This document shows positions 1,161 to 64,000 of a DNA stretch of 64,000 nucleotides, in pieces. The stretch spans positions 40,051 through 104,050 of the forward strand of contig JBAYLD010000001.1 in the NCBI GenBank assembly GCA_041664265.1, in the 5' to 3' direction. The first letter of the stretch is position 1. Each line of letters starts with the position of its first letter. Both the position numbers and the translations under genes were made by a program. Origin of the DNA: Minisyncoccota bacterium (GTDB lineage Bacteria; Patescibacteriota; Minisyncoccia; Phycocordibacterales; Phycocordibacteraceae). The notes beneath the pieces were generated by a model that did no database searches, had not been told where the DNA came from, and saw nothing but the letters and a program-made list of their open reading frames with translations.

Positions 1161-2183
1161 ATGAGACGCGCGTTCGAGATATCAGGCATTATAGTGCTCG
1201 TCGGCATCGTCTCTGGGAGCGTTATTCTCTCATTTCCCGGGATAGTCGCTTGGCACGCACAGCAGGAGAAGCAGCAAACGGCTTCCACAATGCAAGAGCA
1301 ATTTCCTGTTACTGTCGACCCTAAAAACAAGACCATCATCGAAGACGTGGCGGTAAACGCATTCCTCGAGAGCCCCCATTCCCCGCTCCAAGCGGCGGCC
1401 ATAAACGCCGAGAATGCCGTATGGAGCGTGCTCGAATGGATCGCAAGCGCCATCGCCGAAGCTTCCTGGTACCAGAGCGTCGCTGCGGTAGCCGGCGTAG
1501 ACAGCCGCATCGTCACCATCACGCCGGGGATGCGGAAGGAGCAGGTGGCAAAGACGTTTGCAAAAACGCTTGCGTGGGACGCTGCTCAGGCGAAAGAGTT
1601 TACCACAGCGACCGCATCATCTTCACTCCCCTTACCCGAGGGCTCGTTTGTGCCGGGGACGTACCCGGTGAATAAAAAGATGACACCGCTTGCGGTACAA
1701 GCACTCGTGAACGAGCGATTTTCAGAAGAAATCCTCTCGCATTACGGTCCGGAGACCGCCGCGGTCGTACCGCTCGACCAAGCGCTCACGATCGCCTCGC
1801 TCCTCGAGCGCGAAGCGGGAGGGGCTGATGACATACGCATCATATCAGGCATCATTTGGAATCGACTCTTCATCGGCATGCGACTTCAGATAGATGCCAC
1901 GGTCCAATATGCAAAAGCGAATAACGCATCGGTAGCCAGCTGGTGGCCCAAGATCGCGCCCGGAGACATCTTCCGCAAATCGCCCTACAACACGTACCTA
2001 CACCCCGGACTGCCACCGACACCCATAGCCAACCCCTCGGTCGCCGCAGTGCTGGCCGCTCTGAATCCGAAGCAGACGCCCTGCCTCTTCTACTTCCACG
2101 ACAACGCGGGACAATTCCACTGCACCGAGACCTACCCCGAGCACGTCGCGCTCCTCAAAAAATATTTTGGCCGCGGGAAATAG
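1161..2183 (+). CDS. mltG: Endolytic murein transglycosylase MltG (YceG-like)
   Basis: N-terminal TM anchor and conserved C-terminal YceG-type motifs ('YNTYLHPGLPPTPIANPS', 'CLFYFHD'). Confidence 0.75.
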   Translation: MRRAFEISGIIVLVGIVSGSVILSFPGIVAWHAQQEKQQTASTMQEQFPVTVDPKNKTIIEDVAVNAFLESPHSPLQAAAINAENAVWSVLEWIASAIAEASWYQSVAAVAGVDSRIVTITPGMRKEQVAKTFAKTLAWDAAQAKEFTTATASSSLPLPEGSFVPGTYPVNKKMTPLAVQALVNERFSEEILSHYGPETAAVVPLDQALTIASLLEREAGGADDIRIISGIIWNRLFIGMRLQIDATVQYAKANNASVASWWPKIAPGDIFRKSPYNTYLHPGLPPTPIANPSVAAVLAALNPKQTPCLFYFHDNAGQFHCTETYPEHVALLKKYFGRGK

Positions 2184-2187
2184 ACAA

Positions 2188-2207
2188 CCCCGACGTTACC
2201 GTCGGGG
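2188..2207. terminator. GC hairpin between convergent mltG and pyrC; possible bidirectional terminator.
   Basis: ccccgacg-ttac-cgtcgggg sits 5 nt after the mltG stop and about 15 nt after the pyrC stop. The T-tract is weak. Confidence 0.35.
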
Positions 2208-2222
2208 CTGAGTGAAAGAACA

Positions 2223-3287
2223 TTAATCAACGAGTTTCCAACCGACATACTGCCCGACTCCGAAGGGTAACGCAGTTTGTGTACCTATCCGATAAGACCG
2301 CGGTACATACCATGATTCCCCTCGAACAAGCGTAAGCGTGCGTGACGATTCGGGTAAGAGGTAGAGCCTCCTCGCATTTCGGCTCGTGAAGTTCACGAAG
2401 GTCTGGATACCATTTTCAGTAGCGATAATTTTATCCAGAGCATGTGCGTACAGCGGCATCAGGAACGGGCCAGTGTACGCACCACAGGCACAGGTTCCCT
2501 CTTCTACCTGTTTTGCAGACTTGTCGTGGAAGGCTGAGTCACCGCCGGCCATGACCCACGAATAATCTTTGGCGACCAGATCAATCAGCCCGCGACGATC
2601 ATCTTCCGTCTTGACCGGCGGCTTGCACACTGAGCGAACATCACCAAAGGACAGATCTTCATTCGTCGCCAAATGGTGAGCGGTCAGAGTCAAAGCGAAT
2701 CTGCCGGTCAGAGCCATATTCTCCCAATGCGGGATGCACCGCGCATCAGTACCATGCTCCCAGATGATGATCGCATCGGTCTCTTCAAGGAAGATCCGTG
2801 CGATCGGCAAGAATGCGAACTCTGCATCGCGATTATTGAAGATCATAGAGGGATGTTCGGGATGAAAGTGAACTCTCATCCCAACTTTGCCGCAGTGTTT
2901 TACGATCGGGAGAATCCGCCCATAGTGCTTCACGCCGTAGAGCGCGTTGGTCGTCCGTAGGAATGGATATACCTTCCCGTCCCTGATTCCAGCCTTTACA
3001 CATTCATCAATGTCCTTCTTCGTGGTTTCTTCTGTGATCAGAACGGACGGGATGAACGAAACACCTTTCCCGGAGACGAAAAACTGCTGATGTCCCGCCT
3101 GTGTCAAACCGTTCACGTACTTGGATACCTCTTGTTCTGTTCGTAAGCCCTTTTTCGTGTTCGGCATAGCGCCGAGCACGTCCGCCCCACCCGCGATAGC
3201 ATTCACAATGAGCGGCGCGATCAACTCCCCTTCTCGCAAGTGCGTGTGCACATCTGCGAGAGCATCAACTTCGATCATTTGATTCAT
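2223..3287 (-). CDS. pyrC: Dihydroorotase (homodimeric type)
   Basis: 'DVHTHLREG' metal-binding HxH, 'DSAFHDKS...CACGAYTGP' matching the E. coli PyrC 'GTDSAPH...CGCAG' region. The ORF extends to 3326; the start at 3287 (MNQM) has a GGAG SD and fits behind the pyrD stop. Confidence 0.75.
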   Translation of the reverse strand: MNQMIEVDALADVHTHLREGELIAPLIVNAIAGGADVLGAMPNTKKGLRTEQEVSKYVNGLTQAGHQQFFVSGKGVSFIPSVLITEETTKKDIDECVKAGIRDGKVYPFLRTTNALYGVKHYGRILPIVKHCGKVGMRVHFHPEHPSMIFNNRDAEFAFLPIARIFLEETDAIIIWEHGTDARCIPHWENMALTGRFALTLTAHHLATNEDLSFGDVRSVCKPPVKTEDDRRGLIDLVAKDYSWVMAGGDSAFHDKSAKQVEEGTCACGAYTGPFLMPLYAHALDKIIATENGIQTFVNFTSRNARRLYLLPESSRTLTLVRGESWYVPRSYRIGTQTALPFGVGQYVGWKLVD

Positions 3288-43012: not shown

Positions 43013-43084
43013 GGCCAGATGGCGAAGTGGTAACGCGACGGTCTGCAAAACCGTTATGCGCGGGTTCAATTCCCGCTCTGGCCT
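43013..43084 (+). tRNA. tRNA-Cys (anticodon GCA)
   Basis: Acceptor GGCCAGA/TCTGGCC, anticodon stem ACGGT/ACCGT with loop CTGCAAA, T-loop TTCAATT. Confidence 0.75.
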
Positions 43085-43104
43085 CTGGTAAGATATAGAT
43101 GTTT

Positions 43105-43192
43105 GCCGAGATGGTGGAATGGTAGACACGCGACGCTTAAAACGTTGTAAGCTTTAAATCGGCTTGTGTGGGTTCGAGTCCCACTCTCGGCA
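43105..43192 (+). tRNA. tRNA-Leu (anticodon UAA), type II with long variable arm
   Basis: Acceptor GCCGAGA/TCTCGGC, anticodon loop CTTAAAA, about 19-nt variable arm, T-loop TTCGAGT. Confidence 0.8.
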
Positions 43193-43208
43193 CTGAAGTA
43201 GCATATTA

Positions 43209-44381
43209 TTACCCTTTGATTTCATGAGGCAAATCAAGGATATTTTCGGCTGTCTCCATACTTCCCCGCTGTTTCCTTTGAATTTCCAGCCACCGGTTGA
43301 CCACCGGTTGCCCAAAATCCGCCGCAAGAGCAGCTCTCGGATTCAAGAGATCTATCGCTGCCCGGTAGGAGGAAGGTGCCACATGCGCGTATCGCATCGT
43401 GGTCATGATAGAGGTATGCCCCAAGAGTTCTTTTATTGTGTTCAGGGGCACGCCCTTCATGGAGAGGTGCGAGGCGAACGTGTGCCGCAAGGCGTGCCAG
43501 GTTATCCTCCTGATCCCTGCTTTTTTACATGCTCGCGTCAGTGCGGCACCTAAGCGGCATGCGCTGAAAGGATGCTGCCGTTCATCAGCAAAGACAAACC
43601 CTGATTTTCGCTGCCTTCTGAGCAGGATATCGTAGACATCAACATCAAGCGGAATGGGACGCTCTCGGTTGCTCTTTGGAGATGTCAGCGTCTTGGCACG
43701 ATCGACAAGCGAGTGCCGCACCACCAGGTTTTGGTTTTGCCAGTCGATGGATGTCCACTGGAGCCCCCGCAACTCCCCCAGCCGCATGCCGGTCCGAAGG
43801 CCGGTGAGAATTAAGTCGTACAACACGCCATTCAGCATTCCCTTCGCTCCTATAAGCAACAACTTGGCATCCGCTTCGGAGAGATAGTTTGTCTCAGGCG
43901 GCGGGCACACGAGCCGCTTTATCCGCGGAGGCGTTGATTCAAGCTGTAGCCATTCGTAGGCCGTGGTGAGGCAGGTGTTCAACACGGTTAGGCGATTGTT
44001 CACTGTCTTCCTCGCCGCCCCCTTTTGAAGCGCGTGTGCCTTGTACCGTTCAACATCATGCGCTGTGATTTGCCCGAGGGGCATCTTGCCGAAGAATGGC
44101 AGGAGCGATGATCTGAGGATGTATCTCTTGGTTTGGCATTCCGAAGCCTTGTTATTAGAGATTACGTACTCGTCAAACCAACGTTGGGCAAATTGCGCAA
44201 ATGTCTGTCCTGATTCGTTCGGTTTGGCATTTATGTCCTCACCGTGAGCCAATTTTCGCCGCAAGACAACTTCGTATGCAAGCGCTGCCGCTCTTGAATT
44301 CTCGGGACTTCGCTTTCGATAACGGACATAGTTGAACCAGAAGTCGATCCACCAGGAATTCTTTATCTTTCGTACTGCCAT
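43209..44381 (-). CDS. Tyrosine-type site-specific integrase
   Basis: C-terminal catalytic region 'HALRHTFASHLSMKGVPLNTIKELLGHTSIMTTMRYAHV' (R..HxxR...Y). tRNA-adjacent. Confidence 0.85.
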   Translation of the reverse strand: MAVRKIKNSWWIDFWFNYVRYRKRSPENSRAAALAYEVVLRRKLAHGEDINAKPNESGQTFAQFAQRWFDEYVISNNKASECQTKRYILRSSLLPFFGKMPLGQITAHDVERYKAHALQKGAARKTVNNRLTVLNTCLTTAYEWLQLESTPPRIKRLVCPPPETNYLSEADAKLLLIGAKGMLNGVLYDLILTGLRTGMRLGELRGLQWTSIDWQNQNLVVRHSLVDRAKTLTSPKSNRERPIPLDVDVYDILLRRQRKSGFVFADERQHPFSACRLGAALTRACKKAGIRRITWHALRHTFASHLSMKGVPLNTIKELLGHTSIMTTMRYAHVAPSSYRAAIDLLNPRAALAADFGQPVVNRWLEIQRKQRGSMETAENILDLPHEIKG

Positions 44382-45419: not shown

Positions 45420-46262
45420 ATGAATAAGCGAGGATTAATACTAGACCTCGATAATACATTATACAATTGGGTCGATGCTTTTCTTCCTAGTTTCCGAGCT
45501 ATGATTCACAAGTTATCACACGAGCTTAGCATAGAGGAAGAGGAGATACTTGACGATTTCCGTGATGTATATCTAAAGCACGGCACCGTAGAGTACCCCA
45601 GAGCTGTCAATGAGCTAACCCTTTGGGACAGAAACAAGATCTCTGATAAAGAAAGAAAACGAATTTCTGAGATTGTCGACAAAGTCTTCTCCATCAATTA
45701 CCGGAGTCATTTACGTCTTTTTCCCAATGTACGAGAAGTTTTAATGTGGACTCGAGAAGAAGGGATCCCGGTAATAGGTCTTTCTGATGCTCTTGAACGT
45801 TGGGTCTGTTATCGGCTCAGAATCCTTGGAATCGAGAAGTACTTTGCAGGCCTCTATACATGGCAGCATGATCAATGGTTTGATGATCGTCATCCGCATC
45901 ATAGTTCTATAAAAACACGCGTCCAGCTTAATAGCAACGAATTGAAACCAAATTTGGAAGTTGTTAATCGAGTTCTTGCGGATTTCTCATTAAACAGGGA
46001 AACCACATTCATGGTGGGAGATAGCCTATCAAAGGATATCGCTGTAGCACAGACTGCTGGGGTCAATGATGTCTGGGCCCGATATGGCACACGCCCGCAT
46101 GAGCTAAATCTTAATACTCTTCGACGGATTACTCCTTGGTCTGAGTCGGAGAAGGCTAAGGAGAAGAACGCCAAGTTACACATTGTACCTACTTTCATAA
46201 TTGATGACTTTCATGAACTAATCGGCCTGATCGGCACTCGTAGACCAAAGCTTTTTGACTAG
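45420..46262 (+). CDS. HAD-superfamily hydrolase (phosphatase-like)
   Basis: Motif I 'LILDLDNTLY' (DxDxT), motif IV 'MVGDSLSKDI'. Confidence 0.7.
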   Translation: MNKRGLILDLDNTLYNWVDAFLPSFRAMIHKLSHELSIEEEEILDDFRDVYLKHGTVEYPRAVNELTLWDRNKISDKERKRISEIVDKVFSINYRSHLRLFPNVREVLMWTREEGIPVIGLSDALERWVCYRLRILGIEKYFAGLYTWQHDQWFDDRHPHHSSIKTRVQLNSNELKPNLEVVNRVLADFSLNRETTFMVGDSLSKDIAVAQTAGVNDVWARYGTRPHELNLNTLRRITPWSESEKAKEKNAKLHIVPTFIIDDFHELIGLIGTRRPKLFD

Positions 46263-46268
46263 GAAAGA

Positions 46269-47351
46269 TTGATGCACTTCGGAAATGTGGAACTTGATGC
46301 AGCATTTATAGATGCAGAGGATATCGTCGCCAAGCTGCATTTCCTCGACCAAATGGAAAGACGATGGCCATATAATCCTGCAAAGGGCGTCTCTTTGTCC
46401 GAGCGTGTGGCCTGCTCCCTAACCCAACTTCCACCTGAACTACAGCAATTCGCTCTCGCCGTGTTCACTAATGTAATATACCTCCCAGATACACTCCTAA
46501 GAGAGTCATGGAGCTACCTGGCAAGCAAGATCGCTAGAGACCTCGGTATCACAGTATGTAACCTTTTCGAGCAATCTCACCTCTTGGAAGTTGATCCTAG
46601 TGGCCTTATCCCGACTTTTCTCCATGAAAATAAAGTGCATGGCCGCCTCGATACAGATCACTTCTCTCGTCTGCAGTCAATTGATGAATTGGCTAACAAT
46701 CTGCGGCTTATTGGTTTATCTGACAAACAAGAAGAGGGATCTGTACATGGAATTCGTTTGGCTTTTAGTCGACCATTTTGGCTACTTCTCTCAGATAACG
46801 TTCTCAGCGGAACCTCGGTCGCATCCGATCTAAGCCGCTGTGACCGTCTGATTAATGCTTACTCGAAGCTCGGTACTCCAAAGATAATCCCAGTAACGCA
46901 AGTTCTTACGTCCTCAGCCGAATCCTCCGTGCTTTCATCCTGGACCACTACATTCGCTCTCCGCTTTGACAAACAGTTTCAAGTTCTGCCTGGTAATGAA
47001 GATTGTAGCCTATTTAGCAGACGGGATACATTAGACGGAGCCATACGTCTTTGTGACTGGTTTGCTAGCCAAGATTGGTTTTCTAAGGACGATCGCTTAA
47101 CCGCGACCTTACAGAAGAGCGGAGACAACATGGCATATGGTTATAAAAGGGGAGGATGGACTATTGTCACTCCAAACTGCCCCACAAACTCACTTCCAAT
47201 TCTATGGTATGAGCGGGAAGGTGTATATAAGGCCCCCTTTCCAAGGATAATGTCAAGGACATCTCAAATGAAAGGGCACGGAGAGGAGTTGACGGAGGAC
47301 GCCATCTCCTTGGCGCCCCGAGTTCTCAAGAAGTTAGGGGTGGTTGACTAA
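46269..47351 (+). CDS. Hypothetical protein, paralog A (N-terminal 'FxNVELDAAF' motif)
   Basis: ORF only. Shares an N-terminal motif with the next gene. Confidence 0.4.
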   Translation: MMHFGNVELDAAFIDAEDIVAKLHFLDQMERRWPYNPAKGVSLSERVACSLTQLPPELQQFALAVFTNVIYLPDTLLRESWSYLASKIARDLGITVCNLFEQSHLLEVDPSGLIPTFLHENKVHGRLDTDHFSRLQSIDELANNLRLIGLSDKQEEGSVHGIRLAFSRPFWLLLSDNVLSGTSVASDLSRCDRLINAYSKLGTPKIIPVTQVLTSSAESSVLSSWTTTFALRFDKQFQVLPGNEDCSLFSRRDTLDGAIRLCDWFASQDWFSKDDRLTATLQKSGDNMAYGYKRGGWTIVTPNCPTNSLPILWYEREGVYKAPFPRIMSRTSQMKGHGEELTEDAISLAPRVLKKLGVVD

Positions 47352-48409
47352 TGCGCACTTACTTTGATGGAGTCGAACTAGATGCAATATTCCATTCCAT
47401 CCGAGATATGCCAATTGTCCTTGTTGCTACACCAAACTATGAGGAACGTTCGATTGGGTTCTCGCAATGGTTTCTCCATACTTGTCACTCTCAAAAGATT
47501 GATCCAGCAAAAATATTCGCTCAATTCTTGTGGCCTCAAGGAACCTCTTCGCGAGTCGATCTTCTGGAAAAATTAAAAATATCTCAGATTGATAAGCTTT
47601 CTGAACAGCTTCAGTATTGCGCATGGACCCGATCTGTCTTCAGCTACCCAGATGACTTTAATGAAAGACAGGTTATTGATTTAATTCATGAAGCAACTAA
47701 TAAATTTAGCGATGAGCCCTTTAGTCTGATTATAGATATTTCCTGTATGCCTAGGCGAGTAATAGTATCTGTGTGTGATGCTGTTGTCGAGAAAATTAGA
47801 TGTGTTGATAAAGCAGTCCGCCCCCTAGTTTTTTTCGTATACGCGTCGCCGAAAAAGTATGCGGCGATGCGGTACGCGCAGAATATCGGCAATGTTAAAG
47901 GTTATTTCTCTGGCCGTCCCATTCACAATTGCCCTTCCGATCATGTGACCGCTCTGATTTTTGCAAGTTTACAGGGGTACGAAGGCAAAGTGCTCTATGA
48001 TGAGGTCCGAAGCAGGATCAGAAGCTCGGTAACTACATTCGTGGCGGTAAGTGGAGCAGATTACCAAACATCGCTCGCGACAATGAGAGCAAACCAATTC
48101 CTTATGGAGCAGAGAGACATAGACGTCTCGTACTATTTTTCTTTAATGGATGGAATGGAGAAATTAGCAAAACGCATCGAAGCCGAAGGTTTGGTGGGGG
48201 GAGGGAGTGGACTTTCTAGAATGGTGTTAGTCGCTCCCTTCGGCCCAAAGGTTTTTACACTTGGGGCATATTTCATGCTTTCTAACCTACGCTCAGTCAA
48301 TGACTCCATCCAAACTGAAATTGCCCACGTCAGCGGCTTTCAGTATCTTTCATTGTACTCGCTCGGGCTAAGTCATTTTAACGTATTTAAACTATGTGTG
48401 GAGATCTGA
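47351..48409 (+). CDS. Hypothetical protein, paralog B (N-terminal 'FDGVELDAIF' motif)
   Basis: ORF only. Start overlaps the stop of the previous gene. Confidence 0.4.
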   Translation: MRTYFDGVELDAIFHSIRDMPIVLVATPNYEERSIGFSQWFLHTCHSQKIDPAKIFAQFLWPQGTSSRVDLLEKLKISQIDKLSEQLQYCAWTRSVFSYPDDFNERQVIDLIHEATNKFSDEPFSLIIDISCMPRRVIVSVCDAVVEKIRCVDKAVRPLVFFVYASPKKYAAMRYAQNIGNVKGYFSGRPIHNCPSDHVTALIFASLQGYEGKVLYDEVRSRIRSSVTTFVAVSGADYQTSLATMRANQFLMEQRDIDVSYYFSLMDGMEKLAKRIEAEGLVGGGSGLSRMVLVAPFGPKVFTLGAYFMLSNLRSVNDSIQTEIAHVSGFQYLSLYSLGLSHFNVFKLCVEI

Positions 48410-49067
48410 TTCTGTGACGGTAATAAAAATCTGCGATGTGAGAAAGCCGGAGGTAGCATCTTTTTGTGCTTCATGCGGTGCAGAAATGATTGGCCTACAC
48501 TGTATTTGGCACCCTCCGTCCGGAGAGAAATTAGCAACTTTCCAGGATATTTTTAGAGTAGTGCAAGGGCGATGCAAGTGTGTTTTAGTTACCCGTCAAA
48601 AGGATATTCCAACAATCATAGACATGATACAAGGGATGGCATGGGACTATATCCAACTGCATTCGGACTGGGCCCTTAGCAGTATCAATCAGCTTAGGGC
48701 GAGACTGAGTGAAAGCGGCAGATCACTTGGCTTAATCGGTGTTATTGAGATCAGTATGCAAGGCATAACACGAATTAAAAAAATTGCAGAAGCTACAGAT
48801 ATTCTTCTTCTTGATAGCTCGATTCGTGGTGGAAGTGGGACATCCGCGTCATCTGCATTACTTGAACAGGCGGTATCGCATATTCAATCCAAGCCCTTTT
48901 TAATTGCCGGGGGACTTCGAGAAGAGAATGTTTCTCATATAATAGAAAAATATCACCCGTGGGGAGTCGATGTTCAGTCCGGGGTTGAGAAGCCCGGCGG
49001 CAGCAGAGAAAAAGATTTCGACATGATACGGGGGTTCATCTCTACCGTGCGATCCCCAACACGATGA
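48396..49067 (+). CDS. Phosphoribosylanthranilate-isomerase-like (TrpF-fold) TIM-barrel enzyme, standalone with no other trp genes
   Basis: 'IKICDV' (compare IKICGI), 'YIQLHSD' (LHG), 'LLDSSIRGGSGTS', 'LIAGGLREENV...WGVDVQSGVEKPGGSREKD' match the TrpF C-terminal phosphate-binding pattern. Confidence 0.5.
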   Translation: MWRSDSVTVIKICDVRKPEVASFCASCGAEMIGLHCIWHPPSGEKLATFQDIFRVVQGRCKCVLVTRQKDIPTIIDMIQGMAWDYIQLHSDWALSSINQLRARLSESGRSLGLIGVIEISMQGITRIKKIAEATDILLLDSSIRGGSGTSASSALLEQAVSHIQSKPFLIAGGLREENVSHIIEKYHPWGVDVQSGVEKPGGSREKDFDMIRGFISTVRSPTR

Positions 49068-49762
49068 TATGCAAGATCTGTATTTAACTCCTCTTTAACA
49101 GTTGAAAAAGTATGTTTAGCGATATTGGGAACATAGGTAACATAAAAATAGTCTTGGCACTACACTTTGATCTTTGACGTGACACCGTGACACTATGCGC
49201 TATCGCAAGGTAAGCACGACACCGGAAGGACACGAAGGACGCGAGAATTGGACATCTGTACCTCGTGGTTATTCCGATGAAATCGGCCAGTCGTTCCGAT
49301 TCAAATCGGCCACCCTGTCGGAGCGAAGCGACGCCGGCTTTTTAATTCTGTCTCATAATGACTTTCTCAGGTCAAGCCGGAATGTTTTTTTCTCATGGAT
49401 CCTCCCTTCATTTTTATTTTATGGGCGTTGTGAATCAGACGATCGAGGATGGCGTCGGCGATGGTAGAATCACCGATATGCTCATGCCAGTTCTCTATCG
49501 GTAACTGACTGGGAATGATCGTTGAGGCCTTTTAGGGAGGCGTACCGACGCTGGATAATTTAAGCTGAAGCTGAAGCCATTAAGTCACCGGTCAAAATTT
49601 ACCGGAGGGGTTCAATGGCAGCAGAAAGGTTATCCATGCGCACCATCAGAGAGATTTTAAGACTGCACTGGGAGCACCATCTTTCCCAGAAGCAGATAGC
49701 CATAAGGAAGAGGATTTGGAGTGTATCGTAACTTTCGTCGGAGCTCGCTTTTTGTCGGAGGA

Positions 49763-50497
49763 TTAAACTTCCTTTTCCACGCTCGCGATGATATCTCGAA
49801 CAAGACCATCCAAATTCCAGAACGGGTCACCGGTATGGAACCGCGAAAGCTTCTCCACAATTTTTTTGTGTTCGGGCGCACACATTGATGGTAATCCGAA
49901 AACTGACAGCCATGGTTGGGAGTTTTGTACAACATTATTGAAAATTTCCGAGACATGCCATGAAAACATGTCGTAGTCATCTCCGCGATATCGTGGGTAA
50001 TGTTCGAAGAAATATTCGTAAAAAATAAAATGTAATAATTCGTGCGCAATGACAACATTTACGTACCGTTTGTTGCGGTGGCGATATGGAACTTGGAAGG
50101 TTTTATCATCAAGAAATCGCGGATAAATACCCCAGATCGTAGAATATGCGATGTACTTCCCTTTTGGCCAAGGATAATCGCCGAAGATTTGTCGAACGAG
50201 TTCATCAAACTTTGGTTCAATGTCCCGCCATTTGCGCTCATAGTGTGCAAGATTTGAGGCAATACTTTGGGCCAAATCTTCATACTTGTTTTTTACGAAT
50301 CGAATGACATCGGTACGGCAACCGACAAAGCGTACGCCTTGAAACCACTTTTTGCACGTTTGATATTTATCGAGTACGGCCCATTTTAAACTTCTACCGC
50401 TATTATATTCTGCATCTGAGACAAATCTGAAAAAGCTGGCGACATCCTTATTTGCGTCAGCTCTAAATATTATCCGTTTGCGTAATCTATATCCCAC
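49763..50497 (-). CDS. Hypothetical protein with HExxH motif ('VVIAHELLHFIFYEYFFEH'); candidate metallopeptidase downstream of the radical-SAM gene
   Basis: HELLH plus a downstream Glu. Same strand, 57 nt after the rSAM stop. Confidence 0.35.
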   Translation of the reverse strand: MGYRLRKRIIFRADANKDVASFFRFVSDAEYNSGRSLKWAVLDKYQTCKKWFQGVRFVGCRTDVIRFVKNKYEDLAQSIASNLAHYERKWRDIEPKFDELVRQIFGDYPWPKGKYIAYSTIWGIYPRFLDDKTFQVPYRHRNKRYVNVVIAHELLHFIFYEYFFEHYPRYRGDDYDMFSWHVSEIFNNVVQNSQPWLSVFGLPSMCAPEHKKIVEKLSRFHTGDPFWNLDGLVRDIIASVEKEV

Positions 50498-50554
50498 AAA
50501 ATTGAGTGGCAGAGATTATTTAATCTCTGCCACTCAATAATAACATCAAGCGAA

Positions 50555-51940
50555 TTAAGCGGCAATTGACGTGCTATACGTTTGCCAAATTAACCACTCA
50601 AGCGAAAGGTTACTGTGTGGGCAAATTCTCCGATCGATATTCCATCGGTCACCGGTCTTCAGTTCAGCACTGGCCGGGCAGCCACCACCACAAATGCCTA
50701 ACGACTTACAATCCAAGCATCCTTCCATGAAGATTGGAGAGCGTTTCTTCCAATTCTCGAAAAGACCATCTTGAACCGGATCATAAGTCGGGTCAAGAAC
50801 TGATCCTCGGAAGTATGTCCTGGGTTTTACGAAGTCCTGGCAAGCACCGATCCGCCCATCAGGAGCAATGACGATCTGACTTCCATTGACGCCACAATCA
50901 ATAAAAATAGGCTCTCGTTTAACAAACGCCCGAGCCTTTCGCATCATCCGTTCTTCGTAAATGCCACGTTCACGAAAAACTTCGAATGCTTTTATGAGGC
51001 AAATTGCCGCAGCCTGATAATAATCTTCCCCTGTAGACATCTGCGGACTGTAATGTAGAATGTTAAAACTCAGACCATCCCGAATCCCGAGTTCCTCTAC
51101 AAAGTATGTGAGAACCTCATCGAAGTTTTCCACCACTTCCGGCGTGAGGGTTGCAGAAAGGCCAACCATTGCTCCGCATTCGCGCCCTAACTTGTACGCT
51201 CGTTCAGCTTTTTCGAAAGTTCCGCCTTTCCCTCGTTTTGCGATTCGGTGCAAATCATTGAGATGCCGAGGGCCATCCAACGAAATACCAATCGTGACCT
51301 GATGATCTGCAAGAAACTGTGCCATATCGCGTGTCAATAATGCGCCATTGGTCACTATCACCATTTTCGTCGTTTCCGGCAATGAACCAGACGACTTCAA
51401 CTCTTCTGTCCTCGTGACTGCTTTTTGCACTCCGGGCGAATTTAAGAGCGGCTCACCGCCATAGAGATGGATTACGCGTTTCGCCGATTTGCTGTCGCCA
51501 TACCGCGTAGTAAGGCGGGCGAACGTCTCTAGACCGTGAGAAATTACTTCGTCGCTCATCTTTGATGCCTTGAACGATAGTGCCTTTGGCGTGTCCTCAA
51601 AACAGTAGCGACACTGGAAATTGCAGCCATCGGTCAAAAGCAAATAACAGAGATTCATACGAACGTTTTCAACCAGAGACAGACGGGATTGAGCCAGTAG
51701 ATCATCATCCTGCGTCGCTGTACTCACCAACAACTGTTCGGCGATTAATTGATCAATCACATCACCGAATACCGATTTTAGTAGCGTTCGGGAGGGTGTG
51801 CTGTGTACAGCTGAGAGCAAACAATTTCCCTGCTCCTCCGGGAGGAATACCAGATTCAAGGTAAGAGAATTTATCAACGCCATCACCCCTTCACGTACCG
51901 ACGATTTACACCAACGAGATACGCATAATTCTTCTGACAT
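50555..51940 (-). CDS. Radical SAM / SPASM-domain peptide maturase
   Basis: 'CNFQCRYC' CxxxCxxC about 100 aa from the N-terminus, with an RRE-like extension before it. C-terminal SPASM Cys cluster 'CLDCKSLGICGGGCPASAE'. 461 aa. Confidence 0.8.
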   Translation of the reverse strand: MSEELCVSRWCKSSVREGVMALINSLTLNLVFLPEEQGNCLLSAVHSTPSRTLLKSVFGDVIDQLIAEQLLVSTATQDDDLLAQSRLSLVENVRMNLCYLLLTDGCNFQCRYCFEDTPKALSFKASKMSDEVISHGLETFARLTTRYGDSKSAKRVIHLYGGEPLLNSPGVQKAVTRTEELKSSGSLPETTKMVIVTNGALLTRDMAQFLADHQVTIGISLDGPRHLNDLHRIAKRGKGGTFEKAERAYKLGRECGAMVGLSATLTPEVVENFDEVLTYFVEELGIRDGLSFNILHYSPQMSTGEDYYQAAAICLIKAFEVFRERGIYEERMMRKARAFVKREPIFIDCGVNGSQIVIAPDGRIGACQDFVKPRTYFRGSVLDPTYDPVQDGLFENWKKRSPIFMEGCLDCKSLGICGGGCPASAELKTGDRWNIDRRICPHSNLSLEWLIWQTYSTSIAA

Positions 51941-58521: not shown

Positions 58522-59274
58522 CTAAATCATGATTAAATCTTGGTTTTGCCCCCTGACCTCCCCGTAAGTAATAAGCCCCTTTCGGTAAAGGTGTTCCCGG
58601 CCCAAGATCGCGCTTACTTGCCTTTGTGTCCAGGATTTACCATTCCTTCTCAGGTAGCCGCACTCATTTAGAAAGGCGGCGATTTCCCCGGCGCCTTTAT
58701 TTTGCGCATGCAGAGAAAATATGTGTTTTACAACGTCCGCTTCCTGGGGATTCTTCTTTATCTCCCGGCCGTACCTCGTATATCCATAAGGCAACGTCCC
58801 ACCGGCCATCAAGCCTTTTCTTATCCGCTCTTCCCTTCCCTTTTTCAACCGTTCAATGATTTCTTTCCGATTTTCCTCGGCAATGGCAGCCTTGATCTGC
58901 CGTATGAGGACGTCTTTCCTGTTATTACCGTCATAATTTGGCATATCTCCTATGAATATTTTCACCCCGAGATTCTGAAAATCATAGATTAAATTCTCCG
59001 TAAACCGCAGGTTTCTCGATAGGCGATCGAGAGACGAAACAACGACCGCCCCAATCTTACCCGCCTTGCAATCACGGACCAGCCGGCGTAGTTGGTTCCG
59101 GCGTTCCGATGCTCCGCTCTGCGCTTCATCAATGTAATAATCCTCGACGGGCAAGCCGAAAACTTCCGCGTATCGTTCAATATCCCTTCTCTGAATATCA
59201 ATCCCATAGCCTTTCTTTTTTTGTTCCAGGGTGCTTACCCGGCAGTAGGCAGCCACAATTTTCCTTTTCTCCAT
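58522..59274 (-). CDS. Small serine recombinase (resolvase/invertase family)
   Basis: 'VAAYCRVSTLEQ' catalytic Ser, 'VVSSLDRLSRN', C-terminal recombinase/HTH region. 250 aa. Confidence 0.85.
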   Translation of the reverse strand: MEKRKIVAAYCRVSTLEQKKKGYGIDIQRRDIERYAEVFGLPVEDYYIDEAQSGASERRNQLRRLVRDCKAGKIGAVVVSSLDRLSRNLRFTENLIYDFQNLGVKIFIGDMPNYDGNNRKDVLIRQIKAAIAEENRKEIIERLKKGREERIRKGLMAGGTLPYGYTRYGREIKKNPQEADVVKHIFSLHAQNKGAGEIAAFLNECGYLRRNGKSWTQRQVSAILGREHLYRKGLITYGEVRGQNQDLIMI

Positions 59275-59567
59275 GCAATCCGACAGTTAGCCGATTATCG
59301 CAGCTTCTCTTTGTAAAGGGGAACCGAAGGTTAAAGACCTATATTGCTATGGGGCAAGGATGTCAAGCAAAATGTCAAGCCAAAATTGAGCATCATTTGC
59401 CAAATATTTCGACCTTGGTAACCATCCCATCGTCGAAAACTTTGCCAAAACTTCTAACTGCTTTATTAAAAAACTTAAAACCCACGTTTAAAATTCATTT
59501 CATCCTTATAAATGCGACTGTTTTAGACTACATTCCCTCAACTTTACAAAGTTGCATAGAGGGGCTA

Positions 59568-59813
59568 ATGGTTCATTCTTTTCGGTCCGATGAACTACAG
59601 AAAATTGTCTCAGAGGCCGTCGAATATTTTCTAAAAGGTCCCATTGAATCTTTCCCGACCTTCAAACCATTCATAGGTGGGGGCGTATACACCCTTTATT
59701 ACATGGGCGACTTCCCTATTTACAGCAATATCAAAGTAGCGGAGGTTAAGCCGGGCTCCGTTCCTATTTACATGGGAAAATCAATCCAAGCGGCTGGCGA
59801 ACGGCAAGAATAA
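59568..59813 (+). CDS. Hypothetical small protein
   Basis: ORF only. Internal Met of a longer ORF (59109-59813) that overlaps the recombinase on the opposite strand. Confidence 0.2.
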   Translation: MVHSFRSDELQKIVSEAVEYFLKGPIESFPTFKPFIGGGVYTLYYMGDFPIYSNIKVAEVKPGSVPIYMGKSIQAAGERQE

Positions 59814-59946: not shown

Positions 59947-59975
59947 ATAAAATTTCCTTGACATGAAAGACTGCT
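59947..59975 (+). promoter_or_regulatory. Candidate promoter TTGACA-17-TATCCT upstream of the ubiquitin-like operon
   Basis: -35 at 59947-59952 and -10 at 59970-59975, about 170 nt before the first gene. Confidence 0.3.
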
Positions 59976-60146
59976 TTCCGTATCCTCAACCCATGCAAAA
60001 GTAAGCTCTTATCAATGTGGCTCCTCGGGCAGCGCATAAAACAATTCACACCCTGAAAAGGGCTTTGGAGCATTCCCGCCATCTTGTTAGGCAAGTGGAC
60101 GCGCATGCGTGATTACCAAGCTTCCGGGAATCGGTAAGGTATAGGT

Positions 60147-60443
60147 ATGGCAATGACAAACCAAGACGCAGCAACAGCGAGCAAGGCTAAACCTGGCGAC
60201 AACAACGAAAAGTATTTCTATTTCGTGGACGGGGAAAAGTTTGACTCCGAGAATGAATTTACCACGGGTGCGATTATCAAGTCCCGGCTGGCGGAAGCAA
60301 AGCGTAGCTATGCGTTGTTCCTCGAGGGCCACGACAACGATCCCGACACATTGATCGGCGATGACACCAGCATCGACCTGGGAAAAGAAAAAGGCCCGAA
60401 GCGATTTTACACCGTTCCACCCGCCAGTTTTGGCAGCCCATGA
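60147..60443 (+). CDS. Multiubiquitin-domain (bacterial Ubl, beta-grasp) protein
   Basis: 'KYFYFVDGEKFDSENEFTTGAIIKSRL...YALFLEGHDNDPDTLIGDDTSIDLGKEKGPKRFYTVPPASFG' fits the Multiubiquitin-family pattern. First gene of the operon. Confidence 0.5.
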   Translation: MAMTNQDAATASKAKPGDNNEKYFYFVDGEKFDSENEFTTGAIIKSRLAEAKRSYALFLEGHDNDPDTLIGDDTSIDLGKEKGPKRFYTVPPASFGSP

Positions 60444-60817
60444 CTCCTGTCGAAGAGCAGTTCGAGATTCTTCGAGGTTATGAAAATGGTGCCGTCCTAC
60501 AAAAGTTACCGGACGGTTCTCATCTGATCACCATCGGAGGAGTCAAACTCCCTTCCGGCTGGTCCAAGGCGTTTGTTGGCGTTAAATTCCTCGCTCCTGT
60601 CGGCTATCCTTTCTCCAAGCCCGACTGCTTCTGGACAGACCCAGATTTGCGCTTGGCCAATGGTAACCCCCCAATGAACACAGGCTCAAACCCTATACCT
60701 CACGTCAATTCTGGAGGTCTGTGGTTCTCGTGGCACGTGGCATCGTGGAATCCCAATTTTGACAATCTCCTAACGTACTGGTACGTCATTAAACGGAGGC
60801 TCTGTGATCCCCGATGA
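60440..60817 (+). CDS. E2-like (UBC-fold) ubiquitin-conjugating enzyme homolog (Prok-E2 type)
   Basis: 'PVGYPFSKPDCFW' parallels the eukaryotic E2 'YPFKPP' core. Overlapping start/stop with its neighbours. Confidence 0.45.
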   Translation: MTPVEEQFEILRGYENGAVLQKLPDGSHLITIGGVKLPSGWSKAFVGVKFLAPVGYPFSKPDCFWTDPDLRLANGNPPMNTGSNPIPHVNSGGLWFSWHVASWNPNFDNLLTYWYVIKRRLCDPR

Positions 60818-62139
60818 GCCGACTCGTCCTCACATCTGACTTCCTCGCCAGTTTGAGAGGAAATCTCCTCAAGCACGAGGAGGAGACCTGCGCCATTCTC
60901 TATGGTCGCCCCGTAGAAATCTCTGGCCGATTGGCCCGCATCGTGGTTCACGAGTCCACCTACCCGCAGGCAGAGGCCTACAACGCTCGCACGTCCATCC
61001 GCGCACAACTCAAGCCTGAGTTTGTCTCCGAAGCAGTTCAGCGTGCGCGGCGCAACGGTGAATCGGTCATTTTTGTTCATTCGCACCCATTTCCCTTCAA
61101 CCAATTTTCGGAGACCGACGACGCAGGCGAGCGGGAGTTGGTGCCTTTTCTGAGTGGTCGCATCCCTGATGTCCCGCATGCAGCGATGCTGCTTACCCCC
61201 GAAACAAGCATTGCTCGTGAGATCGGCACAAAGAAACCGCTTCGCGTGGTTGGGGTTGGTGAGAACATCATTTGGGGAGAAGCTGCTGGAGGTGAAAAGC
61301 CGGCCGAACGCTACGATCGGCAAATCAGAGCATTCGGCACCGCTGGGCAGGATGTGCTCAGATCAATTTGTGTTGCTATTGTCGGATTGGGCGGCACTGG
61401 CTCGGTAGTTCTCCAAGAATTGATGTATCTCGGCGTACGTGACTTCATCCTGCTCGATCCTGACACCGTTGAAGAAACGAACCTCAACCGCCTCGTTGGC
61501 ACAGTTCCCTCCGACATCGGGAAGGCTAAAGTTGATGTTGCGGAAAAATGGGCAAAGCGAATCAATCGAACGCTTCGCATTGGCGCGAGAAAAGAAAGTG
61601 CCCTCAAAGCCGATGTCGCGAGGTCTCTGGCGGAGGCCGATTTTCTGTTTTGCTGTACAGATTCCCACGGCAGTCGCGCCGTTTTGAACCAGTTTGCGTA
61701 TCAGTATCTCGTACCGGCAATTGATATGGGCGTGGTGATCGCGACAGCCAAGGGACGAGTCACCCATGTTGCCGGCCGCACACAAATGCTTGCTCCCGGA
61801 CTTGCCTGCATGGCGTGCGGAAATCTCTTGGATGCAGAACGGGTGCGCCGGGATCTAATGACTGATTTTGAAAGACAGCAGGACCCATATATTGTCGGTC
61901 AACCGGAACCGGCTCCAGCCGTCATCTCTCTGAACAGTACCGTGGCATCGCTCGCGGTAACGATGTTCCTCAACGCCACGGTCGGCATTCCCGGCTCCGC
62001 ACGATTTCTCAATTACAACGGTATGACCGGAACCTGCCGCCCAGTTCTGAGCATCCCACACCCTTCATGCATTGTTTGCTCGCCCCGCGGTGCGATAGCT
62101 CGCGGCGACGAGTGGCCGCTACCCGCGCGACAGGACTGA
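60814..62139 (+). CDS. JAB/MPN deubiquitinase-like domain fused to an E1-like ThiF/MoeB adenylyltransferase
   Basis: N-terminal JAMM 'IFVHSHPF...S..D'. C-terminal 'RQIRAFGTAGQDVLRSICVAIVGLGGTGSVVLQELMYLGV', 'LLDPDTVEETNLNRL', 'CMAC'. Confidence 0.75.
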   Translation: MSRLVLTSDFLASLRGNLLKHEEETCAILYGRPVEISGRLARIVVHESTYPQAEAYNARTSIRAQLKPEFVSEAVQRARRNGESVIFVHSHPFPFNQFSETDDAGERELVPFLSGRIPDVPHAAMLLTPETSIAREIGTKKPLRVVGVGENIIWGEAAGGEKPAERYDRQIRAFGTAGQDVLRSICVAIVGLGGTGSVVLQELMYLGVRDFILLDPDTVEETNLNRLVGTVPSDIGKAKVDVAEKWAKRINRTLRIGARKESALKADVARSLAEADFLFCCTDSHGSRAVLNQFAYQYLVPAIDMGVVIATAKGRVTHVAGRTQMLAPGLACMACGNLLDAERVRRDLMTDFERQQDPYIVGQPEPAPAVISLNSTVASLAVTMFLNATVGIPGSARFLNYNGMTGTCRPVLSIPHPSCIVCSPRGAIARGDEWPLPARQD

Positions 62140-62142
62140 CCT

Positions 62143-63666
62143 GTGCATCCAGAACGTAAAACCGTACTCCAAATCGGCTCCGCCACAGTTGAAGAGGAAT
62201 TCTTCCATAAACTTCAAAAACATTTTATTGAACATGGACTTCGTCTGACCCCTTCCGCCCTGACTCAGATCCCGAGTGAGGCAAATTCGGCGTGCGGCAT
62301 TCTGATTGCCGAAATGTCCGGCAAGATTGGTTTTATACGATCGTGCTTCGAGACGTTGAGCGACACCGCAGAGGATTCAGGGCTAGCGTTTGCCGTTCTC
62401 GTTCCCACCTCGGATGGGCTTGGCGTGGTGGAGCGGCTTATTTGCGAGTTACGCATGGAATCGCGGGCCACCGTTAGCCTCACCGAGGATGCAGGGAACG
62501 CTGCCGAATATCTCGCCCGCTGGACTCCGGGACCGCCCTTAGGTAAACCGACGGTTCTCCCGCCAGGTTTCGGCCTGCCGCCTCGAACGGAGCTGCTACT
62601 TCAAAGGTCATTCCATGACTGCGATCGAATTTACCTGCAGCCACTCAGTGGCGGGCGAGACGCGTCGGGCGTTTTTTGCGTCCATGCCTGGCTTAGGAAA
62701 TCGATCGTTGGGCCGAGACCCTTGCCATTCTTCATCAAGTTCTCTACGCCGGACAAAATAAAAGGGGAGCGATCTAACTATGAGGACTATGCCGACTTTT
62801 ATATCCCCTTTTATCTCAGGCCCAACATCGTTCCTATGCGATGTGCTCAGGTCAAGGATTTGGCCTCTCTTGTGGGCAATTTTGTGGAGGGCGCGATACC
62901 GCTAAGGGCCGCACTCCGGGCGTGCCAGAGCCCTGGAATTATCTTCTCACTTTTTGAGATCAGCTTGAGGGGATTTAGATCCCAGCCAGCCAGCGGGCCA
63001 ACTGCGAGTTGGGATGAGCCATTGGAAGCCTTCGTGCGCGAACGTGTCCGGGCGGCAGAGGTTGAGGCGGATACTGTTGATCTCGCCCGGTCCTCCTTCG
63101 GTTTGAAGTTCACGCCGATAGAAATCGAAAATCGCCTATGTGCTGCCATTGGACCAGTCAAACGAAACTTCAGCCCATACCATGGCGATCTGCATACTGG
63201 AAACATCATGGTTCGTGGTAGGGATGCCATCCTAATTGATTTCAGCGCCGTTAAGAAGGGGCCACTCACCGCCGATCCCGCCACCTTGGAAGCAAGCCTT
63301 GTTTTCGGAACCGACGCTGAGGACGATAGCGCTGAGTTTGAGGAATGGAAGAAAGCTGTGGATGTGATTTACGACGGTGTTCTAATCCACGAACCACCCT
63401 CTCTCGGAACCGGTCCAGGTCCCTTCGCTTGGCTTTACATGGCGCTCCGGGAAATTCGGCACGTCCTACTCGGATGCGATTGCAAACAGGAGGAAGCTGC
63501 GGAGGTGCTCGCAGCGTACCTGCTTCGTTTTGGGCGTCTGCCCGCCGACAAATTTGAGGATAAGACGCTTTCGGAACTGGCACGTTCAAGACGTGCGTAC
63601 GCCTTGGTGGTAGCCGAGAGAATCGTGGACTCGCTGGTTGCAAAGAAAGGAACAGCAGCGACGTGA
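62143..63666 (+). CDS. Protein with C-terminal protein-kinase-like/APH-fold domain; last complete gene of the ubiquitin-like operon
   Basis: Catalytic-loop-like 'HGDLHTGNIM' followed by 'ILIDFSAV' (DFG-like). Confidence 0.4.
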   Translation: MHPERKTVLQIGSATVEEEFFHKLQKHFIEHGLRLTPSALTQIPSEANSACGILIAEMSGKIGFIRSCFETLSDTAEDSGLAFAVLVPTSDGLGVVERLICELRMESRATVSLTEDAGNAAEYLARWTPGPPLGKPTVLPPGFGLPPRTELLLQRSFHDCDRIYLQPLSGGRDASGVFCVHAWLRKSIVGPRPLPFFIKFSTPDKIKGERSNYEDYADFYIPFYLRPNIVPMRCAQVKDLASLVGNFVEGAIPLRAALRACQSPGIIFSLFEISLRGFRSQPASGPTASWDEPLEAFVRERVRAAEVEADTVDLARSSFGLKFTPIEIENRLCAAIGPVKRNFSPYHGDLHTGNIMVRGRDAILIDFSAVKKGPLTADPATLEASLVFGTDAEDDSAEFEEWKKAVDVIYDGVLIHEPPSLGTGPGPFAWLYMALREIRHVLLGCDCKQEEAAEVLAAYLLRFGRLPADKFEDKTLSELARSRRAYALVVAERIVDSLVAKKGTAAT

Positions 63667-64000
63667 TGCCAACACCCGTAAATAAGGTCTTATTTCGAGG
63701 AAAGGTCCAGCGGCGCGACTTGGGCACACCACTCCTTCAGGCACCTGGCGATGCGGTGCTCGTCGAGAGAGGCAAACCCAGGCTGTTGATTCTTCGCTGT
63801 CCCTGTGGTTGCGGTGACGACCTGCTCGTCAATCTCGACAGGCGGACCGGAAAGGCATGGTATCTCTATCGAAGTCGGAAGGGACTGAGTCTGTATCCGT
63901 CATATTGGCGAGACGACGGCTGCGGCTCCCATTTCATTGTATGGAACGACCACATCTATTGGTGTCGCGGCTGGGGGGCTGACGAAAGCGATGATTGGCA
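63666..64000 (+). CDS. Cys-rich small protein (CPCGCGD...CGSH...C), truncated at the window end
   Basis: Hand-translated from the ATG overlapping the upstream TGA: MPTPVNKVLFRGKVQRRDL...RCPCGCGDDLLVNLD...DGCGSHFIVWNDHIYWCRGW. No stop before the window end. Confidence 0.3.
   Translation, partial: MPTPVNKVLFRGKVQRRDLGTPLLQAPGDAVLVERGKPRLLILRCPCGCGDDLLVNLDRRTGKAWYLYRSRKGLSLYPSYWRDDGCGSHFIVWNDHIYWCRGWGADESDDW

Follow-up and report, generated by a model that had tools for sequence, protein, structure and literature searches.

A conserved protein-kinase-fold gene is the fifth member of a large subgroup of Type I Bub ubiquitin-like conjugation operons

Bub is a recently characterized and biochemically unusual ubiquitination-like pathway that proceeds via tyrosine and serine oxyesters. 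The gene set of its 6E.1 form was described by Iyer et al. in 2006, with no kinase given there for 6E. In Type I Bub, the ubiquitin-like protein (Ubl) is conjugated through a tyrosine oxyester on the E1 and a serine oxyester on the E2, and the operon also encodes a serine peptidase, BubE (DUF6527) (10.1101/2024.11.21.623953). As published, a Type I operon consists of genes for the Ubl, the E2, a JAB-E1 fusion, and BubE. The operon studied here lies at the end of a 64,000-nucleotide (nt) stretch of the genome of a Minisyncoccota bacterium (GenBank assembly GCA_041664265.1, contig JBAYLD010000001.1, positions 40,051 to 104,050 of the forward strand; the whole stretch is called the window below) and differs from the published arrangement in having a gene for a kinase of about 500 amino acids (aa) between the E1 and BubE genes. 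Comparison with related loci revealed that this kinase is a dedicated, conserved fifth gene of a large Type I Bub subgroup and not an accidental insert.

The operon runs in the order Ubl, E2, JAB-E1, kinase, DUF6527/BubE, with all genes on one strand. Its features in the window are as follows:

59958..59986, + strand: promoter-like site TTGACA-17-TATCCT, about 160 nt upstream of the Ubl gene, 10 of 12 positions matching
60147..60443, + strand: bubA, Ubl of 98 aa with a single beta-grasp domain and a weak Multi_ubiq match
60440..60817, + strand: bubB, E2-like protein of 125 aa (Pfam Prok-E2_E, 4.4e-10)
60814..62139, + strand: bubCD, fusion of a JAB/JAMM peptidase and a ThiF-type E1, 441 aa (Prok-JAB, 6e-10; ThiF, 1.3e-39)
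62143..63666, + strand: kinase gene, 507 aa, with a GTG start and a TGA stop at 63664-63666
63666..64000 and past the window end, + strand: bubE, DUF6527 serine peptidase (Pfam DUF6527, PF20137, 4.6e-15)

The bubE gene is complete on the source contig, where it encodes 178 aa (L001 11524-12060). Promoter-like sites in the region were not above the shuffled expectation (4 versus 2.9 expected), and the promoter evidence is weak.

The genes around the kinase resemble Type I Bub as characterized by Ye, Gong, Chambers, and Corbett (10.1101/2024.11.21.623953) in encoding a Ubl that ends in glycine, an E2 with Asp, Ser, and His and no Cys, a JAB-E1 fusion with a crossover-loop Tyr and an adenylation Arg, and a DUF6527/BubE protein with a C4 zinc site and a Ser-His dyad, and they share its tRNA-linked mobile-island location. 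We scored residue conservation in an alignment of 62 related operons and, for the E1, also in an alignment of 37 sequences. The Ubl here ends in VPPASFG followed by a two-residue tail (SP); the motif PPA[ST]FG, followed by 0 to ~15 variable residues (usually 0 to 4), is common to 70 distinct Ubl C termini, and F95 and G96 are invariant across the 62 loci. Invariant as well are D62, S97, and H99 of the E2, which has no catalytic Cys requirement, and the JAMM residues H89, H91, S99, and D102, together with R226 and Y359, of the JAB-E1 protein. Its E24 is present in 95% of the 62 loci and is invariant in the 37-sequence alignment, and we infer from its place in the sequence that Y359 is the crossover-loop tyrosine. 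In BubE, C45, C49, and C86 are invariant, C47 is present in the CPCGCG motif of the protein encoded here, and these cysteines are consistent with a C4 zinc site; the S79/H89 dyad is invariant and spaced as reported by Ye et al. (10.1101/2024.11.21.623953). Because all of the Bub catalytic features are conserved, the pathway around the kinase looks fully functional. Judged by these residues and by gene order, the operon is a Type I Bub (6E.1) operon with an extra kinase gene. The Ubl and E2 are encoded by separate genes, as they are in about 31 of the Type I operons catalogued in Table S1 of the same study.

The genes are tightly spaced. The bubA and bubB genes overlap by 4 nt (ATGA), and the kinase and BubE genes overlap by 1 nt (TGATG), with the BubE ATG at 63666-63668. 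At the E1-kinase junction (TGA-CCT-GTG), the E1 stop codon at 62137-62139 is followed by a 3-nt spacer and, in the same frame, by the kinase GTG at 62143, which is the most upstream start possible and has an AGGA 8 nt before it. An earlier, sequence-only reading of this region had described TGA/ATG overlaps on both sides of the kinase gene; the overlap with BubE is there, and at the E1 junction there is instead the spacer, which that reading had missed along with the Bub/6E (Tyr/Ser oxyester) identity of the operon. Among 84 distinct loci, the gap between the E1 and kinase genes fell within -28 to +5 nt in 73, the commonest values being -4 nt (19 loci) and +3 nt (17 loci). Tight E1-kinase coupling is thus a family-wide property. 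Stop-codon read-through or an E1-kinase fusion was considered and rejected, because the gap varies over that range and the 84 loci show no frame preference (22 in the same frame, 27 and 35 in the other two).

To trace the association, we used the E1 alignment to scan one genome per species for relatives, of which there were 329, and analyzed the best 80 (41 to 75% identity). The kinase directly followed the E1 in 70 of the 73 loci so retrieved that had at least 1.5 kb of downstream sequence. These E1-retrieved loci came from Verrucomicrobiota, Planctomycetota, Acidobacteriota, Gemmatimonadota, Bacteroidota, Chloroflexota, Myxococcota, and Alpha-, Beta-, and Gammaproteobacteria, and the closest genome relatives of the operon were found in Verrucomicrobiota/Limisphaerales metagenome-assembled genomes (72 to 75% identity). 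The three exceptions were two decayed operons (L017 and L059) and one intact operon (L062). The same association was recovered from the side of the kinase. A metagenome scan with an alignment of 23 kinase sequences as the query yielded 41 loci; Bub genes were present in all that had enough flanking sequence, with the E1 immediately upstream in 30 of 34. An exhaustive kinase search returned 656 clusters (50% identity) at an E value of ≤1e-3 and 214 at ≤1e-30, nearly all of about 500 aa. All of the kinase contigs examined, from 100% down to 31% identity, encoded, in this order, the Ubl, the E2 (~125 aa), the JAB-E1 protein (~441 aa), the kinase, and BubE, and even distant kinase members (31 to 36% identity) sit in Bub operons. 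In the surveyed loci, the slot after the E1 holds the kinase or is empty, and it is never occupied by another effector type. A different order, E1, BubE, kinase, was seen in Mesorhizobium loti UFLA 01-765 (L077). No metabolic or transport genes were conserved beside the kinase in the neighborhoods examined, and the kinase had no matches in IMG/VR contigs or GenBank phages.

The five-gene set is also annotated in RefSeq on Mesorhizobium and Deinococcus plasmids, under the names “multiubiquitin domain-containing protein,” “E2/UBC family protein,” “ThiF family adenylyltransferase,” “phosphotransferase,” and “DUF6527 family protein.” Searches with tblastn turned up homologs of the kinase on plasmids of Bradyrhizobium and Rhizobium, and isolate genomes with related operons include those of Pelomonas and Hydrogenophaga. 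On the plasmid of Deinococcus sp. AB2017081 (L132), the five-gene operon is preceded by a divergently oriented gene for a 401-aa XRE-family regulator (1521-2726), and downstream of BubE comes one more gene, for a 249-aa hypothetical protein.

The kinase has traveled with the operon, since its distance matrix correlates with those of the Ubl, E2, and E1 (rho, 0.63 to 0.69) as strongly as theirs correlate with one another. It is at the same time the fastest-evolving of the five genes, with a mean pairwise p-distance of 0.67 versus 0.52 to 0.56 and a median identity to the window protein of 34% versus 46 to 52% for the other components. A different layout is found in L111 to L113 and probably also in L121, where the kinase and a second, diverged Ubl form a transcription unit of their own, convergent to Ubl-E2-E1-BubE. 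In L113, where this unit spans 1261-3024, the second Ubl is encoded just upstream of the kinase and ends exactly at PPATQG, and the second Ubls of L111 and L112 are similar. An XRE-type helix-turn-helix (HTH) gene lies upstream of the relocated unit. The pairing of a relocated kinase with a second Ubl is a soft tie of the kinase to the Ubl.

We found no prior description of a kinase in 6E/Bub operons in the searchable literature, which is not proof of absence; within that literature, the kinase-bearing five-gene subtype is undescribed. The word “kinase” is absent from both of the Bub papers and from Table S1 of Ye et al. In the accessible Type I rows of that table, the E1 and DUF6527 gene identifiers are adjacent except in two operons (10.1101/2024.11.21.623953): Bradyrhizobium tropiciagri has one unlisted gene between them (IMG 2641677677 / 2641677679), and Oceanicola sp. 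MCTG156(1a) has two. The Bradyrhizobium tropiciagri operon may therefore bear the kinase without its having been remarked upon.

The kinase forms a family that is new and not yet curated, in a fold that is well known. The top-scoring Pfam model was TCAD9 (PF19974; 1.3e-12, 48.1 bits against a cut-off of 40), in an alignment restricted to positions 293 to 347 of the 429 in the profile, which are the catalytic-loop part of the model. The aminoglycoside phosphotransferase model APH (PF01636) matched at 2.4e-8 (34.4 bits against a gathering threshold of 23.2) over about two thirds of its profile (72 to 224 of 239). Pkinase (PF00069) had no match to the protein at an E value of ≤0.1; no NCBIfam, PADLOC, or PHROGs family was found for it, and no curated NCBIfam model reached its threshold. 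In the AlphaFold2 model, built from 93 homologs, the protein adopts a bilobal protein-kinase-like fold of the APH/choline kinase/methylthioribose (MTR) kinase type, with high confidence (pLDDT, 93.7; pTM, 0.90). Its identity to any solved member of the fold is just 10 to 19%, and sequence matches to solved structures were weak and confined to the catalytic loop (MTR kinase, RIO2, YihE, and APH(9)), which aligns with the HGDLHTG loop of MTR kinase 2pyw. The loop reads HGDLH and not HRDLK, the segment after the DFG-like Asp is short, and APE/activation-loop architecture is lacking. The main parts of the kinase gene are the following:

62143..62547, + strand: N-terminal CheY-like/flavodoxin-like domain, residues 1 to 135, five strands and five helices
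62737..62739, + strand: codon of K199, the ATP-anchoring beta3 lysine, invariant in 93 sequences
63181..63210, + strand: catalytic loop HGDLHTGNIM, residues 347 to 356, with D349 and N354 invariant and H347 98% conserved
63235..63246, + strand: IDFS, residues 365 to 368, with D366, the equivalent of the DFG Asp, invariant

Across the 93 homologs (27 to 81% identity), the invariant positions include G171 of the Gly-rich loop, K199, E209 (the alphaC Glu), D349 and N354 of the catalytic loop, and D366, the metal-binding Asp. IDFS is followed by a GP..D motif that is also found in MTR kinase, with P374 and D378 invariant. Because the AlphaFold2 model is confident and the catalytic columns are invariant in the homologs, the kinase is almost certainly catalytically active. 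The two motifs HGDLHTGNIM and IDFS had been picked out by the sequence-only reading, which took them for the catalytic loop and DFG-like motif of a kinase-like fold; both are present as it described, and the predicted bilobal architecture and the conservation in orthologs bear that assignment out. Its alternative suggestion that the kinase is the target of conjugation finds no support, and a role as a lysine-rich acceptor was rejected: K199 is the sole conserved lysine of the family, there is no Lys-rich segment, and the first 130 residues contain four lysines and fold as the CheY-like domain, which that reading had not recognized.

This N-terminal domain has the (beta-alpha)5 CheY-like fold, with conserved positions at R5, G12, F28, R31, L33, G80, and A121. 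A phospho-accepting receiver, with its conserved Asp, acidic pair, Thr/Ser, and Lys, was considered and rejected, as the homolog alignment shows no conserved Asp at the strand ends, and by this pattern the domain is classed as a pseudo-receiver. Residue 31 (62233-62235) is His in the window protein and Arg in 95% of the family. A 32-sequence profile of the domain, used to look for it in other architectures, matched only two fragments of the same family. The receiver-like domain and a variable helical insert at about residues 281 to 345 are the least conserved parts of the kinase, and we infer from the concentration of fast evolution in these two segments a pattern typical of a specificity or sensor module.

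Among described kinases, the APH/choline kinase/MTR kinase group (PF01636) of eukaryotic-like kinases shares with this protein the bilobal fold, the Brenner motif HGDLHxxN, the metal-binding Asp of IDF, GP..D, and the absence of APE/activation-loop architecture. The kinase differs from that group in its N-terminal CheY-like domain, its variable helical insert, its occurrence exclusively in Ubl-conjugation operons, and the lack of an NCBIfam equivalog. TCAD9 of the vWA-MoxR-VMAP ternary conflict systems is likewise an APH-like kinase of biological-conflict systems, and Kaur et al. (2020, PMC7159879) mention APH-like kinases in ternary systems only; no vWA, MoxR, or VMAP genes were found in the window or in the neighborhoods examined. 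CapK, with its partner CapS, resembles the present protein in being a kinase with a genetic link to Bub operons (Chambers et al., 2026, PMC13373217). CapK, however, is an HTH-STAS-GHKL protein of the anti-sigma-factor type, encoded upstream together with its substrate CapS, and controls transcription (PMC13373217), whereas the kinase here has a protein-kinase-like fold, is encoded inside the operon, and has no CapS partner and no STAS or winged-HTH gene nearby. Identity with CapK was rejected on the differences in fold and position. The operon also differs from those of the lanthipeptide kinases of APH fold (LxmK, 9dk1; TvaE, 8jsu) in having no lyase, dehydratase, or precursor-peptide genes. 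In PINK1/phospho-ubiquitin signaling and in the Legionella SidJ/SidE system, protein-kinase-fold enzymes serve as a switch by acting directly on ubiquitin itself or on the machinery of its ligases. Such systems belong to eukaryotes or to effectors and have no detectable specific homology to the kinase described here.

As far as gene association goes, there is strong support for a functional coupling of phosphorylation to Ubl conjugation, which the sequence-only reading had proposed. The reading we prefer, to which we give somewhat less than an even chance, has a pathway protein as the substrate of the kinase: phosphorylation of the Ubl or of the protein due to be tagged would gate or direct conjugation. 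The kinase would be the input or specificity module of this Bub subtype, spending ATP on the phosphorylation of a pathway protein, most likely the Ubl or the tagging target; the phosphate would decide the timing, or the recipient, of Ubl transfer by the E1(Tyr)/E2(Ser) oxyester cascade, and BubE would reverse the mark. Docking or sensing would be supplied by the variable pseudo-receiver domain and the helical insert. Several points weigh against this proposal. Type I Bub operons without the kinase carry out conjugation in vitro (10.1101/2024.11.21.623953), so that the kinase is dispensable for the chemistry itself and thus accessory, and in the same E1 clade an uncultured alphaproteobacterium (L062) has an intact operon with BubE directly after the E1 and no kinase. 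The Ubl has no invariant Ser, Thr, or Tyr across the 62 loci, the best candidate being position 34, which carries a hydroxyl in 95%. The nearest structural relatives are mostly small-molecule kinases (of MTR, choline, and aminoglycosides), so that a metabolite substrate is a serious alternative. Bub operons have so far no demonstrated role in phage defense (10.1101/2024.11.21.623953; PMC13373217). In favor of the proposal, when the other components are regressed out, the residual covariation of the kinase is highest with the Ubl (0.35 to 0.39) and BubE (0.32 to 0.34), values that are soft evidence, as the pairs are nonindependent and carry no permutation test.

Other accounts of the kinase can be set against the same evidence. 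One, which we consider on the unlikely side, is a bacterial phospho-switch on ubiquitin-like conjugation in which the kinase directly phosphorylates the Ubl itself, in the manner of PINK1, or the E1 Tyr, the E2 Ser, or the BubE Ser, and toggles conjugation and deconjugation on a signal from the pseudo-receiver; these Tyr and Ser residues would be open to phosphorylation because Bub uses oxyesters and not thioesters. The roles of machinery and kinase could also be reversed, with the Ubl machinery acting as a sensor or switch, e.g., through a Ubl conjugated or bound to the receiver-like domain, and the kinase as an effector that hits essential host or phage proteins and arrests growth or infection. 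Such an effector would fit the invariant catalytic residues, the lack of a recognized effector in canonical Bub operons (10.1101/2024.11.21.623953), the position of the operon in mobile or defense islands beside restriction-modification systems, toxin-antitoxin modules, and other Bub operons, and the relocated kinase with its second Ubl, an arrangement that would suit a Ubl-activated enzyme. We nevertheless judge it fairly unlikely, in that the family has no conserved acceptor lysine besides the catalytic K199, fast evolution is commoner in sensors than in effectors directed against conserved host targets, and the kinase is never swapped for another effector type at its position in the surveyed loci.

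Whether the substrate is a protein at all is left undecided by the fold, because LxmK, TvaE, YihE, and FN3K, which are peptide or protein kinases, share the fold group with enzymes acting on small molecules. Phosphorylation of a metabolite, a nucleotide derivative, or an antibiotic-like compound, with the product or its removal linked to Bub, would agree with the best structural neighbors (MTR kinase, choline/ethanolamine kinases, APHs, amicoumacin kinase, and hexosamine kinases) and with the conserved C-lobe arginines R436, R439, and R462, which would suit an anionic ligand; the APH-like kinases of conflict systems possibly use low-molecular-weight substrates (Kaur et al., 2020, PMC7159879). 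This is distinctly unlikely in our view, since the association is exclusively with a protein-conjugation operon, without conserved metabolic or transport neighbors, and the extra receiver-like domain suggests regulation at the level of protein. It is very doubtful that the kinase chemistry is irrelevant and the protein a scaffold or a dedicated substrate of Ubl conjugation. The gene order and junctions are those expected for a complex subunit, and many kinase domains of conflict systems are inactive (Kaur et al., 2020, PMC7159879), but here all five canonical catalytic residues and the glycine of the Gly-rich loop are kept without exception in homologs as distant as 27% identity, against drift elsewhere in the protein, and there is neither a conserved lysine besides K199 nor a Lys-rich segment. 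The Pfam APH match and the known presence of the CapK kinase alongside Bub operons (PMC13373217) might finally be taken to mean that an aminoglycoside resistance gene or a CapK-type transcriptional regulator had entered the operon by chance. We consider such unrelated cargo extremely improbable: the position of the gene is the same across ~120 loci of many phyla, the gene has been coinherited with the operon, no NCBIfam resistance model or other curated model reaches its threshold, and CapK differs in fold, position, and partner. The resistance-gene version was rejected on the association data.

The setting of the operon in the window is that of a genomic island, with these features:

43105-43193: tRNA-Leu(taa), the likely left boundary of the island, adjoined by tRNA-Cys (region 43013-44381)
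43209-44381, - strand: tyrosine integrase, immediately after tRNA-Leu(taa)
58522-59274, - strand: serine recombinase, beside the Eco29kI-like open reading frame (ORF)
59109-59813: Eco29kI-like restriction endonuclease ORF, directly upstream of the operon, matching the first ~44 of 164 Pfam positions

The GC content changes at about 44 kb, from 0.56 to 0.45. The tRNA and integrase genes probably mark the point of integration and the left edge of a mobile island, which includes the Bub-kinase operon and continues beyond the window end. The island contains conjugative-element genes, a recombinase, and restriction-enzyme sequence; the Eco29kI-like ORF could be a gene fragment or could encode a diverged enzyme. 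A mobile-element or defense-island setting has been reported for Bub operons (10.1101/2024.11.21.623953), and the setting here matches it. A second, Type II-like Bub operon lies past the window end on the opposite strand (L001 12376-14193) and encodes a 90-aa Multi_ubiq protein and a 399-aa DUF6791-ThiF protein; next to it are an HTH/M78 peptidase pair and a BsuBI/PstI-Eco57I restriction-modification system. Side-by-side pairs of Bub operons were also observed in L022, L032, L038, L041, and L089. Elsewhere on the island, a cluster at 45420-51940 encodes a HAD hydrolase (45420-46262), a PRTase-CE phosphoribosyltransferase-like protein (46269-47351), two proteins without a Pfam match, a PRAI-like protein (48396-49067), and, on the minus strand, a radical-SAM enzyme (50555-51940). 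This cluster may be a nucleotide- or nucleoside-modifying system or a conflict system.

To our knowledge, the five-gene operon would be the first conserved genetic coupling of a protein-kinase-fold enzyme and a ubiquitin-like conjugation cascade in bacteria. The breadth of the kinase-bearing subgroup gives an experimental handle on the targets and role of Bub, and the presence of the five genes on plasmids of cultured Mesorhizobium and Deinococcus, and of related operons in isolates, makes the proposed role of the kinase testable in real strains.

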